Shown: positions 4,520-58,771 of the stretch, piece by piece
Layout of the letters: every line of letters begins with the position of its first letter
How positions within the stretch are numbered: the stretch's first letter is position 1
Source of the DNA: Rickettsia typhi
GTDB taxonomy: Bacteria; Pseudomonadota; Alphaproteobacteria; Rickettsiales; UBA1997
Length of the DNA: 64,000 nt
Direction of reading: 5' to 3'
Assembly (NCBI GenBank): GCA_945865905.1
Contig: CAMBFC010000004.1
Location: 20,553 to 84,552 of the forward strand
Notes under the pieces: generated by a model
The model's database searches: none
The model's input: the letters and a program-made list of their open reading frames with translations, nothing else
Told to the model about the DNA's origin: nothing
Made by a program: the position numbers and the translations under genes

Positions 4520-5314
4520 CTACTTTAAAACATCCTTCATTAAATAAAACCCAGCCTGTTGCCCGCTTCCCCAAATCGCCGCACGAATAGCTCCAGAGGC
4601 AAAAACATTGCGGTTGGTAGCCTTGTGAGTAAGCTCGACCCTTTCACCATCTGCAGCAAAAATAACAGTATGATCACCAATAACATCACCGCCACGAAGC
4701 GTTGCAAACCCAATCTCACCTTTTTTGCGAGGATTATTAACGCCAACACGCTCCATATTTGCAACATCTTTTAAATCAACGCCGCGACCCTTGGCAACAG
4801 ACGCTCCAAGTGATAGAGCCGTGCCAGAAGGCGCGTCAATCTTGTTGCGGTGATGCATCTCTACAATCTCTACATCATAATCTTCACGCAAAATTGCCGC
4901 AACTTTTTCTGCTAAGCTAAAGAGAACATTTACTCCAACTGACATGTTAGAAGACCAGATGATTACTGCTTGCTTGGCATATTCTGCAAGTTTTTGCTTG
5001 TCGGCCTCGGCAAAGCCAGTGGTGCCACAAACAAAAATCTTTTTATGTTCCACAGCTTTTTGAGCGCATTCTAAGCTAAATGCTGGCGAAGAAAAATCAA
5101 TCACCGCGTCGCAGTTTTTGAAAAAACTATCAAGATCAGAGGTTATTTTATAGCCAGTTTTTTCTTGTCCAAGAAACTCACCTAAATCTATGCCATCAAA
5201 ATTGTTGCCTTTGCGAACGAATCCTGCGGTTAGTTCTGCGATTGGGTCTGCAGTGACTAATTCTGCGATTACTTTGCCCATTCTGCCGGAAATTCCTGTG
5301 ACGCCGATTTTCAT
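4520..5314 (-). CDS. dapB: 4-hydroxy-tetrahydrodipicolinate reductase
   Basis: 264 aa with the N-terminal Rossmann motif MKIGVTGISGRMG and EMHHRNKIDAPSGTA, both typical of DapB. Confidence 0.9.
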   Translation of the reverse strand: MKIGVTGISGRMGKVIAELVTADPIAELTAGFVRKGNNFDGIDLGEFLGQEKTGYKITSDLDSFFKNCDAVIDFSSPAFSLECAQKAVEHKKIFVCGTTGFAEADKQKLAEYAKQAVIIWSSNMSVGVNVLFSLAEKVAAILREDYDVEIVEMHHRNKIDAPSGTALSLGASVAKGRGVDLKDVANMERVGVNNPRKKGEIGFATLRGGDVIGDHTVIFAADGERVELTHKATNRNVFASGAIRAAIWGSGQQAGFYLMKDVLK

Positions 5315-5362
5315 ACTATAATATTTTAAGTTTTTATAACGCGTTTATAGATTGTGCCGCAA

Positions 5363-5449
5363 TGATAAATTATGTGTGATTGGAGATCATTTTATTTCGC
5401 GCGCGAGCACAGCTACATAAAATGACCTCCAATCACACATAATTTATCA
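5363..5449 (-). repeat. long hairpin element, core C (GTAG loop read on the minus strand), 33-bp arms
   Basis: Arms 5363-5395 and 5417-5449 are complementary except for one position (plus-strand A vs C, which is U-G on the minus strand). The loop 5396-5416 is TTCGCGCGCGAGCACAGCTAC. Confidence 0.88.
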
Positions 5450-5548
5450 TAACGCACCTCGTAACAAATATCTGTAATAACAAATAAGGCTATTAGTAAT
5501 AAATACAAGTATCAAGTGATGACATGCTCTCAAAACTGGTGCGTTACA

Positions 5549-5629
5549 GATAAATTCTCTACCGCTTATTAATTTTATGTAGCTGTGCTTGCGCGCGAAA
5601 TAAAATTAATAAGCGGTAGAGAATTTATC
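5549..5629 (+). repeat. long hairpin element, core C, 30-bp perfect arms
   Basis: GATAAATTCTCTACCGCTTATTAATTTTAT (5549-5578) is the exact reverse complement of 5600-5629. The 21-nt loop is GTAGCTGTGCTTGCGCGCGAA (5579-5599). Confidence 0.9.
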
Positions 5630-5670
5630 GTGAAAGCAAGATCTATAAACCCCCGCAACCAATAATAAGC

Positions 5671-6576
5671 CTAGTTAACTTTAATATTCCATTTTTTAAC
5701 GAGATAGGCTTCTACGGAATCTCTTTCATTCGTTGTTAATGAGCGATCGAACATTATTATTTCTCCGATTTTTCCTGTGAAGAAATACGAATGATCGGGG
5801 CCTGATCCGATGCTTACGCCGCGAATATTTTGTGTGCCGCCATATGTAGATGCTGCGCTTGTTTGCTCAACTTTATTTGCTCTGGTACTAAGCGTTACAC
5901 CATTTCTTTCGCTGAAAGTAAGTAGGTAAGGAAAGGAGAGGCCGATAAATTGGGAAACGGCACCTATTACAGTTGAGTTTCCAGCATAACCTACTTGATT
6001 TTGCATCATTCCATCGGATCTGATATACATATAAAAGTATCCATCATTTACCATATTTAAAGATTCACTTACACCTACGCTTGATAAAATATATGATGCA
6101 ACACTGGGATTAGTATATTTTGTAATAACAAAAATTGTAAATGAGGTGAGGGAGGCACTTACAGTATTGTCTATATAATCATCAACTCCATCAAAAGATA
6201 GGCAGGGCAAGCCCTTAATACAATTTTCTGTATAGGTTGGTCGATTGCTGCCACTTGAAACCGCATTATATTTAGTGTTGGAAGTTGCATTTAGATCGCG
6301 CCAGGTACTGATTGCAGATCCATTTTCGATATCAACATCAAAACTCTCTTCTGCAGTGGTTTCAACCCAAAACATTATGCCTGTCATTGCATTCATTGGG
6401 GCATTTTGTGTTAACTGGCGCGCTGTTGAAAGCTGATATTTTCTTATTAAGCTACTTGCGTTGGTGACGCCAGCAATAATAATGCCAATAATTAGCAAAA
6501 CTATTGATAATTCAATCAAAGAAAAAGCCTTCTTTCTGGTGAATTTTTCTTTGATAAAATTGGCGATTTTTTTCAT
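5671..6576 (-). CDS. prepilin-type N-terminal methylation-domain protein with LamG/concanavalin-like C-terminal domain
   Basis: 301 aa. The KKAFSLIELSIVLLIIGIIIAG class-III signal/pilin N-terminus is clear. The LamG-type jelly-roll assignment for the C-terminal region (FTGKIGEIIMFDRSLT) is less certain. Confidence 0.7.
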   Translation of the reverse strand: MKKIANFIKEKFTRKKAFSLIELSIVLLIIGIIIAGVTNASSLIRKYQLSTARQLTQNAPMNAMTGIMFWVETTAEESFDVDIENGSAISTWRDLNATSNTKYNAVSSGSNRPTYTENCIKGLPCLSFDGVDDYIDNTVSASLTSFTIFVITKYTNPSVASYILSSVGVSESLNMVNDGYFYMYIRSDGMMQNQVGYAGNSTVIGAVSQFIGLSFPYLLTFSERNGVTLSTRANKVEQTSAASTYGGTQNIRGVSIGSGPDHSYFFTGKIGEIIMFDRSLTTNERDSVEAYLVKKWNIKVN

Positions 6577-11649: not shown

Positions 11650-11667
11650 AGTTTATTATTCGTAAAA

Positions 11668-11814
11668 GATAAATTACCTACTGCCAATTGACTAGGCAGA
11701 GGGTCTGAGGCGAGTTCTGCTCTTCATCGCAAGCTACGCTTGCTTTAAATCAGATGAAAGCGATGTCTGAGCAGCAGACCCTCTGCCTAGTCAATTGGCA
11801 GTAGGTAATTTATC
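11668..11814 (-). repeat. long hairpin element, core B, 40-bp perfect arms
   Basis: Positions 11668-11707 are the exact reverse complement of 11775-11814. The 67-nt core CTGAGGCGAGTTCTGC...GATGTCTGAGCAGCAG is homologous, in inverse orientation, to the core of 41881-42001. The element starts 19 bp after the gatB stop. Confidence 0.9.
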
Positions 11815-11843
11815 GCTAAACGAGATCTAAAAACACAAAAAAA

Positions 11844-36672: not shown

Positions 36673-37521
36673 CTATCTTTGAGTTGCAAAATGCCGCAGA
36701 ACATTGCTGCCCTTGCCAACCTTTAAATTAGAGGCTGCGCAGGCATAAACATAATCATTGGCTTTTTTTACACTTGCAAGCAAACTCATTTTTTTTGCCA
36801 CATTGCACGCAATCGCCGAAGCCAGTGTACAGCCAGTTCCATGCAGTTTTTTTACTGCGACTTTTTTATTAGAAATTTTATAAAAATTATTTTTATTAGC
36901 TGCCAAATCCTTTGCTATCAAGGCTTTACCCGGCCCATCCATCAACAAAATATTTGTTATCGCCCCATCTTTTGCTGGCAAATGCCCGCCTTTTATCAAA
37001 ACATTTTGCGCGCCCAACTCCTTTATTATCAAGGCCGCTTGCCCCATATCATCTAGGTTTTTTATTTTCATTTTTGCCAAAACTTGCGCTTCATCAATAT
37101 TTGGCGTAACCAAAAATGCACCGTCAAGAAGCTTTGATTTTAAAGCCTCTACAGCATTTGCTTCCAATAATAAATGGCCACTGGTAGAAACCATTACTGT
37201 ATCTAAAATTAACGGAATTTTTTTTGCTTTGCGCGAAAGCACATCTGCCACGCAATCAATGATTTCAGCGCTTGAAAGCATACCAATTTTTATCGCATCA
37301 AACTTTATATCATCCAAAACCATCTCTAATTGCTGACGCAAAAATGCAATTGGCGGATTAAAAACCGCCTCAACGCCTTGTGTATTCTGGGCCGTGAGAG
37401 AAGTAACAACCGCACTCGCATAAACTTTATGCGCTGTTGCAGTTTTTATATCCGCCTGCAAACCCGCGCCACCACAAGGATCGGAGCCGGCGATGATTAA
37501 TATTTTAGAAATTTTGGTCAT
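36673..37521 (-). CDS. thiD: hydroxymethylpyrimidine/phosphomethylpyrimidine kinase
   Basis: 282 aa with AGSDPCGGAGLQADIKT and the ribokinase-fold C-terminal motif GTGCTLASAIA. Confidence 0.88.
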   Translation of the reverse strand: MTKISKILIIAGSDPCGGAGLQADIKTATAHKVYASAVVTSLTAQNTQGVEAVFNPPIAFLRQQLEMVLDDIKFDAIKIGMLSSAEIIDCVADVLSRKAKKIPLILDTVMVSTSGHLLLEANAVEALKSKLLDGAFLVTPNIDEAQVLAKMKIKNLDDMGQAALIIKELGAQNVLIKGGHLPAKDGAITNILLMDGPGKALIAKDLAANKNNFYKISNKKVAVKKLHGTGCTLASAIACNVAKKMSLLASVKKANDYVYACAASNLKVGKGSNVLRHFATQR

Positions 37522-41880: not shown

Positions 41881-42001
41881 GGAGCGACGAGGCTCTGCTG
41901 CTCAGACACCGCATCCATCTGATTTAAAGCGAGCGTAGCTCGCGATGGAGTGCAGAACTCGCCTCAGAGCCTCGTCGCTCCAACTCTCACCTGCTATGGT
42001 T
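41881..42001 (+). repeat. long hairpin element, core B, 27-bp perfect arms
   Basis: GGTGAGAGTTGGAGCGACGAGGCTCTG (41881-41907) is the exact reverse complement of 41975-42001. The core is homologous to 11708-11774 in the opposite orientation. It lies 31 bp after the hemE stop. Confidence 0.9.
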
Positions 42002-53403: not shown

Positions 53404-53424
53404 TTGCTTTAAGTTTTCGTTCGT

Positions 53425-53509
53425 TACAGAGAATCACTCTTCTGATATTTATTTATGTAGCTGTGCTTGCGCGCGAAATAAATGAATATCAGAAGAGTGA
53501 TTCTCTGTA
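53425..53509 (+). repeat. long hairpin element, core C, 32-bp arms, in the rpsO-pnp leader
   Basis: Arms 53425-53456 and 53478-53509 are complementary except for one U-G position on the plus strand. The loop 53457-53477, GTAGCTGTGCTTGCGCGCGAA, is identical to 5579-5599. Confidence 0.9.
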
Positions 53510-53688
53510 GTTCGAGAACTTTATAAATAAGATTTTCAAAATGAATTCTTCAATTTTCAAAATGTTGTTAAAGTGTTGCCTCTGTTGTTCTGTGTGTTGT
53601 TTGAAGTTCAAATGTTAAATCACAAATTTCAGATTGTTTTTTGCCTATAAAAGGTGTGTCAAAATGTTAGTAATCAAAAATAATAAAT

Positions 53689-57865: not shown

Positions 57866-58771
57866 ATGAAGCGCGATTTAATCAGCATCGATCAGCTCTC
57901 TGTTGCAGAGATAGATAAAATCCACAAGCTTGCAAATAAATATTTTTTCAAACCAAAGCAAAATAAAAATCTCGCTGGAAAATTGCTGGTGAATTTCTTT
58001 TTTGAAAATTCTACGCGCACCAGAATGTCATTTGAAATTGCGGCGAAGCGCTCTGGTTGCGATGTGGTGAATCTTGATATTTCTCTCTCTTCTCTCAAAA
58101 AAGGTGAATCGATAATTGATACAGCAAAAACTATCAACGCGATGCGGCCCGATTTTGTTGCAATCAGGCACAATTCTAGCGGAATCGTAGAATTACTCAA
58201 AAAATATATTGATGCATCGCTGATCAACGCCGGAGACGGAACAAATGAACATCCTAGCCAAGCATTGCTCGATAGTTTTGTGATTCGTCAACATAAAGGC
58301 GATTTGTCAAAATTAAAAATTGCGATTTGCGGCGATGTTTTACATTCGCGAGTGGCGCGCTCAAACATAAAATTGCTGAAAAAATTCGGTGCAGAGATTC
58401 GTGTGATTACGCCACCAACTCTTATGCCTGTTGATTATAAGCAATGGTTGCAAGAAAAATTTGATATTAAAGTTTTTGATAATTTGGCGGATGGAATTGT
58501 TGGAGTTGATGTGGTGATGATGCTGCGGATTCAGCAAGAGCGCATGCTGGGCTGCTACATTCCTTCTCTGGCAGAATATGCTAAAATTTATGGATTGACG
58601 CATGAGAAATTGCAATTGGCGCATAAGGGTGCTCTGGTGTTGCATCCGGGGCCAATTAATCGCGATGTAGAAATTTCGGCAGAGTTGGCGGATGATGAAT
58701 CGGTGAGTTTGATTTTAGAGCAGGTTGAGGCTGGAGTTGCGGTGCGGCAGGCTTTGCTCGAATTGTTATAA
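57866..58771 (+). CDS. pyrB: aspartate carbamoyltransferase catalytic subunit
   Basis: 301 aa with FFENSTRTR, HPSQALLD and HPGPINR. Confidence 0.92.
   Translation: MKRDLISIDQLSVAEIDKIHKLANKYFFKPKQNKNLAGKLLVNFFFENSTRTRMSFEIAAKRSGCDVVNLDISLSSLKKGESIIDTAKTINAMRPDFVAIRHNSSGIVELLKKYIDASLINAGDGTNEHPSQALLDSFVIRQHKGDLSKLKIAICGDVLHSRVARSNIKLLKKFGAEIRVITPPTLMPVDYKQWLQEKFDIKVFDNLADGIVGVDVVMMLRIQQERMLGCYIPSLAEYAKIYGLTHEKLQLAHKGALVLHPGPINRDVEISAELADDESVSLILEQVEAGVAVRQALLELL

Follow-up and report, generated by a model that had tools for sequence, protein, structure and literature searches.

A probably mobile, MITE/REP-dimer-like palindromic repeat family in an uncultured freshwater lineage labelled Rickettsiales, with a head-to-head dimer between a pilin-like gene and dapB

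We analysed a 64,000-nt stretch of an assembly deposited as Rickettsia typhi (GenBank GCA_945865905.1, contig CAMBFC010000004.1, positions 20,553 to 84,552; the whole stretch is called the window below), and in particular the intergenic DNA at 5315–5670, which runs, in minus-strand order, from the stop codon of a pilin-like open reading frame (ORF) to the start of dapB. As judged from its sequence, the symmetrical array of stems and hairpins at 5343–5650 is two head-to-head copies of one ~115-bp palindromic repeat unit. We consider it probable (roughly 0.8) that the unit is a lineage-specific, non-coding, mobile palindromic element akin to miniature inverted-repeat transposable elements (MITEs) and to dimers of repetitive extragenic palindromic (REP) sequences, and that the region is a head-to-head dimer of this element. 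The repeat family is previously undescribed, and it belongs to an uncultured freshwater lineage of low GC content that is labelled Rickettsiales.

Results

Inverted copies of one repeat unit

The initial annotation of the region, made from the letters, had described two hairpins (here A and B) with mutually complementary 21-nt loops inside a closed architecture made by an outer and a middle stem. Every hairpin, stem and loop that it listed was recovered by the repeat finder (Table 1), and RNA folding of 5330–5660 reproduced the four-helix layout (outer stem, hairpin, middle stem, hairpin) on either strand, with strongly negative z-scores (−125.1 kcal/mol and z = −14.1 on the plus strand; −140.5 kcal/mol and z = −15.2 on the minus strand). 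According to the same repeat finder, the outer stem sits within a 29-nt inverted repeat (5343–5371/5622–5650, 76% complementary), and a 35-nt inverted repeat, 97% complementary, links the apices of hairpins A and B. The further copy of the loop that had been placed in the rpsO–pnp spacer was also confirmed, which gives three matches to the 21-nt loop in the window (5396–5416, 5579–5599 and 53457–53477) versus none in 100 shuffles; a fourth candidate, at 37228–37248 (four mismatches to the loop), is without a hairpin and was rejected as a chance match.

A profile of the unit matches all three window units, A, B and C, with E-values between 1e-20 and 1e-31. In the oriented copies a 5' flank of the type (GC)ATTATTCGTnn or GTGCGTTAC (the flank types can also be given as TGCGTTAC or ATTCGTGG, and the short 5' end as (GTTTAT)TATTCGT or TGCGTTAC) precedes the stem base AGATAAAT, a variable part of 14–17 nt, the stem top ATTTTAT and the 21-nt loop, after which the stem is mirrored and a 3' tail, (ATTTATC)GTGGAAGCAAGATCTATAAAC, ends in GATCTATAAAC. 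Within the stem, which measures 28–37 bp, the base (AGATAAAT/ATTTATC) and the top (ATTTTAT/ATAAAAT) are conserved, whereas the middle varies but stays paired. The stems of A and B had been called unrelated, which holds for their middle 14–17 bp, but not for the base and the top, which are common to both. The variable part is too short for a meaningful database match as a guide or spacer.

The symmetry of the region follows from this anatomy. The tails of units A and B pair to give the outer stem, their 5' flanks pair to give the middle one, and the loops are complementary because one loop is read on opposite strands, as any inverted copies must show; all three features would be automatic by-products of inversion. 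The view of the array as a dedicated closed design that serves antisense control through kissing loops was consequently not upheld, since the stems are conserved unit ends and the loop is common to ~40 copies.

Head-to-head dimers

Opposed pairs recur elsewhere. At ~10 independent loci adjacent units are always in the order (−)(+), with the 5' flanks facing and the tails pointing outward, and no tail-to-tail or tandem neighbours were found among these loci. Same-family dimers are present in the window and in L001, L007, L009, L010 (with its orthologue L031), L018, L024 and L033 (labels of this form are our own), and dimers mixed with a second family, described below, in L003 (with its orthologue L020), L008 and L041. 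The spacers within dimers range from ~20 nt (L007) to ~110 nt and are unrelated in sequence. The two 5' flanks of one dimer are often of different types, and therefore the middle stem is not a conserved feature of dimers. Moreover, the ~70-nt apical module of the second family in the mixed dimers is not the complement of the 21-nt loop, so that the pairing of units is independent of loop complementarity.

These dimers bear directly on the suggestion that the 21-nt loops form a kissing-loop regulatory device, pairing in cis, or in trans with the rpsO–pnp copy, and thereby controlling expression. The recurrence of opposed pairs and a loop that does not drift freely (see below) would agree with such a device, as would the loops themselves (TTCGCGCGCGAGCACAGCTAC at 5396–5416 and GTAGCTGTGCTTGCGCGCGAA at 5579–5599), which match as reverse complements in 20 of their 21 positions and whose free duplex is predicted at −38 to −42 kcal/mol. 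Additionally, promoter prediction gave no sigma-70-like site in the minus-strand DNA that separates the pilin-like gene from dapB, which makes read-through there plausible and both hairpins probably part of one transcript. Complementarity is, however, forced by repeat inversion, and a loop common to ~40 copies offers no partner specificity; mixed dimers with a non-complementary apical module are head-to-head as well, and neither the middle stem nor the spacer is conserved among dimers. The loop also folds on itself (a predicted G(CUUG)C mini-hairpin), and the odd central position, initially read as a G-U pair, is C-A on the gene-sense (minus) transcript (−38.0 kcal/mol for the loop–loop duplex with C-A, versus −41.9 with G-U). 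CopA/CopT of R1 and RNAI/RNAII of ColE1 likewise present two hairpins with complementary loops able to meet; these are, in contrast, cis-encoded overlapping antisense genes with loops of ~6–8 nt and one specific partner, whereas the loops here are 21 nt long, self-structured, common to all copies and complementary via inversion, and we found neither a specific partner nor short accessible loops. On grounds of RNA topology, a complete 21-bp helix between two closed 21-nt loops would require their stems to melt. Kissing-loop regulation is not needed to explain the data, nothing specific speaks in its favour, and we regard it as very improbable.

A promoter of the unit's own in the 5' flank was considered and dismissed, there being no convincing −35/−10 elements and, in the ~20 nt between the L007 hairpins, no room for divergent promoters. 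Immediately beyond complete units, the tail motif (ATTTATCG...GATCTA...) recurs as partial extra copies in L008 (4316–4430), L001 (157–190), L004 (7695–7735) and L007 (3383–3420), which suggests tandem duplication or remnants of lost partner units.

Filled and empty sites

L024 carries (at 1211–1451) a complete 241-nt head-to-head dimer at a site that is empty in the window (58770/58771), within flanks 98.2% identical to window 59979–58770 and 95.6% identical to 58771–57552. Since the dimer is present in one and absent from the other of two near-identical strains, it must have moved or been lost as a block. Differences in content were also seen at other sites: one unit of a dimer is present in L011 and absent from L027, a second-family unit is present in L041 and absent from L002, and one orthologous site holds a solo unit in L005 and a dimer in L033, with unrelated stems. 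At the place of L033's second unit, L005 (441–634) has a remnant of the 5' flank (cattattcgtg) followed by small unrelated GC-rich hairpins (ccccgcaagtgggg, cgccacccgtgtggcg).

The ends form terminal inverted repeats (TIRs), which for the dimer are the 29-nt repeat described above and for second-family units GTTTAT...ATAAAC. A search for an autonomous element, in the form of tail motifs in TIR arrangement 0.5–3 kb apart, returned only chance-level matches in the loci examined.

Stem covariation and strand asymmetry

An alignment of 37 units gave an RNAalifold consensus hairpin of 33 pairs, 23 of which show compensatory double changes, with as many as four Watson–Crick pair types at one position; neither the loop nor the five adjoining A–T pairs vary in the alignment. 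When the 28 pairs nearest the loop were tallied in the 37 units (1036 inner stem pairs), 1007 were Watson–Crick, 21 were G:U on the strand that reads GTAGC (the canonical strand), four were A:C and four were other mismatches; L002 accounts for these last four and for one A:C pair, which is compatible with a register shift of one base in that contig. Folded as RNA, the GTAGC strand is more stable than its complement in 35 of the 37 units, as is the canonical strand in all five second-family units; after the loop had been exchanged for GAAA, the GTAGC strand was still the more stable in 24 units, the less stable in four and tied in nine. From this asymmetry it follows that one particular strand folds, as RNA or as single-stranded DNA (ssDNA). 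In the predicted fold of the apex, GUA and GAA flank a 5-bp GC mini-hairpin that is closed as G(CUUG)C; the apex is without covariation support because it is invariant.

Nine comparisons of units at orthologous loci, with flanking DNA 86–98% identical, point the same way as regards pairing: 18 compensated double changes and nine single changes that keep a wobble pair were counted, and eight changes that involve a mismatch. Five of these eight come from one comparison, L002/L041, where an indel has probably shifted the register. Only 4 of 189 loop positions differ, while directly beyond the hairpin up to 23 of 32 do. The dapB locus is identical to the window in four other assemblies, and unit C is identical in the orthologous contig L035. 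The strain L017 is 98.1% identical to the window over 1818 nt, and all nine differences among 279 aligned intergenic bases lie within unit A: three pairs have changed with compensation, one wobble has been fixed, and one base differs in the loop and one in the tail. The 79-nt spacer at 5459–5537 is identical, and one gene-conversion tract from another copy would be the most economical account of these differences.

These data raise the question whether each unit is selected as a functional RNA hairpin, a domestication that could coexist with a mobile origin. The apex (GUA/GAA internal loop, 5-bp GC stem and G(CUUG)C tetraloop) would then be a protein-docking site, and the covarying stem an RNase III or exonuclease-barrier element for the rpsO–pnp and pilin-like/dapB mRNAs. 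The excess of G:U (21) over A:C (4), the greater stability of the canonical strand, the covariation of 23 of 33 pairs and the conservation of loop and stem while flanks diverge all agree with such a role, although folded ssDNA tolerates G:T wobble too and the invariant apex contributes no covariation. Solo units tend to lie in the sense orientation relative to neighbouring genes (8 sense, 3–5 antisense), but this bias is not significant, and every dimer has one unit antisense to the local genes. The plausible read-through between the pilin-like gene and dapB is a further point in its favour, and the rpsO–pnp spacer of E. coli carries a hairpin cleaved by RNase III; no Rfam family matches the unit. 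We hold domestication to be a tentative possibility, short of an even chance.

Alternatively, the units might be host elements at the DNA level, extruded as cruciforms or hairpins and bound by a nucleoid, topoisomerase, replication or uptake protein, after the model of BIME/REP sites that bind gyrase and IHF or of uptake sequences that mark DNA for import. Units in both orientations relative to genes, their strict placement between genes, a GC-rich invariant apex within an AT-rich genome, and type IV pilin-like and ComEC proteins encoded by the lineage would be in keeping with this; yet the density of ~3 per 64 kb is far below that of known uptake sequences, a function purely as duplex or cruciform would not predict strand-asymmetric mismatches, and no candidate binding protein can be named. 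We consider a DNA-level role improbable. Specific DNA sites were set aside as well: integron attC and Tn3-type inverted repeats do not fit (the conserved part is the loop and not the ends, and there is no GGGG...TAAG), arm similarity to dif is only 6–7 of 11 for an Xer/dif-like site, of parS only a half-site-like CGTGAAA is present, and for a DNA uptake sequence the density is far too low. GC skew was of no use as a guide to replication direction, its sign changes in the window tracking switches of gene strand.

Distribution of the family

The family comprises ~40 units, of which three are in the window, 18 in the metagenome-assembled genome (MAG) 'Rickettsiales bacterium Baikal-deep-G64' and the others in low-GC freshwater metagenome contigs. 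A scan for the exact loop in one genome per species (185,579 species) found 13 contigs, all from this one MAG, and a slightly degenerate loop pattern found 32 metagenome contigs, among which only those of 33–44% GC carry the hairpin. The high-GC loop matches (L014–16, L021, L023, L026, L028–30, L032, L034, L036, L038–40, L042 and L044) have neither hairpin nor shared flanks; they are apparently chance matches and probably lie within coding sequence. Loop scans of viral contigs, plasmids and phages gave no copy. An Rfam search of the whole window at gathering threshold matched only a tRNA, and permissive searches of both repeat regions matched only sub-threshold miRNA-precursor models, which is attributable to the length of the hairpins. 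Literature searches found no description of the family.

Every unit is intergenic, often filling the gap between genes to within a few bases. The metagenome contigs L027 (1–59) and L043 (1–75) both stop inside one hairpin, with the common stem caccaaggcttattg; apparently the palindrome breaks the assembly at this point.

A second family and further variants

The unit at 11651–11834 has the 5' flank GTTTATTATTCGTAAAAGATAAAT, the stem base and the tail ATTTATCG...GAGATCTAAAAAC in common with the 21-nt-loop family, and bears a 40-bp stem and a distinct ~70-nt apical module. Second-family copies were also found in L003, L008, L020 and L041 at 82–89% identity; the intergenic DNA of L002 and L041 is too diverged to set exact boundaries for this family. 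A hammerhead-like motif in its apex was considered and rejected, as CUGAGGCG does not fit the core motif.

A third type of hairpin, in L002 (2972–3076), has a 39-bp stem, a 27-nt loop (TGCTCAGAGGATTTACGATCCATTCGC) and the termini ATTGTTTATAAC...GTTATAAACAAT, similar to the ends (GTTTATAG...CTATAAAC) seen in the other families. In L022 (1253–1361) a variant with the same 21-nt loop and an ATTTAT/ATAAAT top forms a perfect 44-bp palindrome (GTTAAAAAAT...ATTTTTTAAC); its arms are unrelated to those of the usual unit, it has internal flanking A6 and T6 runs, and it is antisense to both neighbouring genes.

The common termini, GTTTAT.../...ATAAAC, suggest that one machinery may act on several non-autonomous families. 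Since two apical modules occur on one set of ends (the 21-nt GUA/GAA and G(CUUG)C apex, or the structured ~70-nt module), a bolder reading can be framed, namely a modular 'hairpin carrier' in which one set of ends and a covarying stem present interchangeable apices on the folded strand and are selected copy by copy. We regard this as doubtful; if true, it would imply an unrecognised apex-reading protein in this freshwater Rickettsiales-like lineage, perhaps a factor that binds or processes RNA, perhaps a nuclease or recombinase specific for hairpin loops.

Features in the window

The coordinates are collected in Table 1. At the start of the pilin-like ORF an imperfect inverted repeat (6497–6573, 30-nt arms, 77% complementary) spans the start codon and the first ~25 codons, and may be due to chance or be a translation-initiation hairpin.

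Table 1. Coordinates of repeat units, their parts and neighbouring genes in the window
Feature	Position	Strand	Description
Unit A	5343–5458	minus	nhmmer family-profile match 5465–5337, E = 4.5e-27; inverted repeat; tail 5343–5361, hairpin 5362–5450, 5' flank 5451–5458 (GGTGCGTTA on the minus strand)
Hairpin A	5362–5450		arms 5362–5400/5412–5450 (repeat finder)
Apical loop of unit A	5396–5416	minus	reads GTAGCTGTGCTCGCGCGCGAA, a T12C variant, the change lying within the tetraloop
Spacer between the facing 5' ends	5459–5537		79 nt; not conserved in other pairs
Unit B	5538–5650	plus	nhmmer match 5534–5656, E = 4.7e-31; inverted repeat; 5' flank GGTGCGTTAC, hairpin 5547–5631, tail GTGAAAGCAAGATCTATAAAC up to 5650
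Hairpin B	5547–5631		inverted-repeat arms 5540–5583/5595–5638 (repeat finder)
Apical loop of unit B	5579–5599	plus	family consensus GTAGCTGTGCTTGCGCGCGAA
Outer stem	5343–5352/5641–5650		GTTTATAGAT/ATCTATAAAC
Middle stem	5450–5458/5538–5546		TAACGCACC/GGTGCGTTA; 9 of 9 complementary
Unit C (solo)	53416–53529	plus	between rpsO (S15) and pnp (polynucleotide phosphorylase), in the same orientation as both; hairpin 53425–53509, loop 53457–53477
Second-family unit	11651–11834	plus	exactly fills the gap between two plus-strand ORFs
Second-family apical module copy	41886–41976	minus	different stem, tail-like end
Empty site	58770/58771		directly 3' of the stop codon of the carbamoyltransferase ORF 57866–58771
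dapB	4520–5314	minus	matches DapB_N and DapB_C
Pilin-like ORF	5671–6576	minus	N-terminal methylation motif

Discussion

The known systems closest to the family are REPs and stem-loop MITEs. REP families form head-to-head dimers and heterodimers with different stems, with spacers of 20–100 bp and G:T pairing, and heterodimers have been suggested to avoid the instability to which long perfect palindromes are prone (PMC3733652). The family described here resembles REP dimers and REPINs (PMC3733652, PMC3116915) in being intergenic, multi-copy stem-loops that occur mostly as head-to-head dimers with spacers of ~20–100 bp, in forming heterodimers with different stems, in G:T pairs that suggest one folding strand, and in a dimer that behaves as a mobile block. 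It departs from them in size and stem: REPs measure 20–40 bp, with a GC-rich stem of 6–13 bp and a tiny loop, whereas the unit here is ~115 bp long with an AT-rich stem of 28–37 bp and an invariant 21-nt loop. Further, the REP tag (GTAG/CGTC) stands unpaired at the stem foot (0–2 nt away), whereas GTAG here is invariant at the 5' edge of the apical loop, where it adjoins the 5-bp GC mini-hairpin, and the foot of the long stem carries CGTG/CTGT-like bases.

With stem-loop MITEs (Correia/CREE, ERIC/RU-1, RUP and the Rickettsia palindromic elements, ~100–190 bp) the family shares a small, non-coding and dispersed nature (~40 copies of ~115 bp), presence/absence polymorphism between related genomes, TIRs (here GTTTAT...ATAAAC per unit, and ~29 nt at 76% per dimer) and probable co-transcription with neighbouring genes, where mRNA processing could be affected. 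Unlike in these elements, conservation peaks at the centre and variability in the inner arms, each copy has its own compensated stem, there is no clear target-site duplication, and two apical modules occur on one set of ends; moreover, Rickettsia palindromic elements occur inside genes, the units here never. Double-hairpin elements and other repetitive hairpin-forming elements of mitochondria are reportedly small mobile hairpin repeats that colonise the intergenic spacers of compact genomes, a likeness that is one of analogy only, the host compartment being different.

Considering a potential mechanism, we suggest that the unit may be a non-autonomous mobile palindrome whose ends and apex serve as recognition sites and whose stem needs only to pair. 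Ends and apex could be read by a transposase, a recombinase or a protein of the host, with a folded single strand, either ssDNA or RNA, as the substrate, and folding would take place on the GTAGC strand. Units would accumulate as head-to-head dimers that are moved or lost as a block, and the differing stems of dimer halves may persist since a long perfect palindrome is unstable. In addition, read-through operon mRNAs (from the pilin-like/dapB and rpsO–pnp spacers) would form double-stranded RNA hairpins of ~30 bp, which could be processing or stability elements in the manner of REP, ERIC and Correia sequences.

Several observations weigh against a mobile element of this kind. The loci inspected revealed no partner protein such as a transposase or RAYT. 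The unit ends show no clear target-site duplication, as the junction between L024 and the window is ambiguous and allows a duplication of 0–3 bp (AA or TAA), the element ends resembling the target sequence TTGTTATAA. A typical MITE has conserved terminal repeats and a decaying interior, whereas here conservation is highest at the centre and lowest in the inner stem. That loop and stem are kept while the flanks diverge is better explained by selection on each copy or by concerted evolution than by selfish decay, and the L017 difference of three compensated pairs, at 98% identity, needs gene conversion or fast compensated change.

Finally, recognition of the family removes an attractive but unnecessary regulatory story, the symmetry of the region being ordinary repeat biology, and leaves a set of clean signals: an invariant apex, compensated stems, strand-asymmetric wobble, strict head-to-head dimers and a filled/empty site. 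Elements of this kind are markers of strain-level differences, and their palindromes interrupt metagenome assemblies; in compact genomes they may also influence how mRNA is processed, the rpsO–pnp spacer being an example. The unusual traits of the family could justify more if a partner protein were found.

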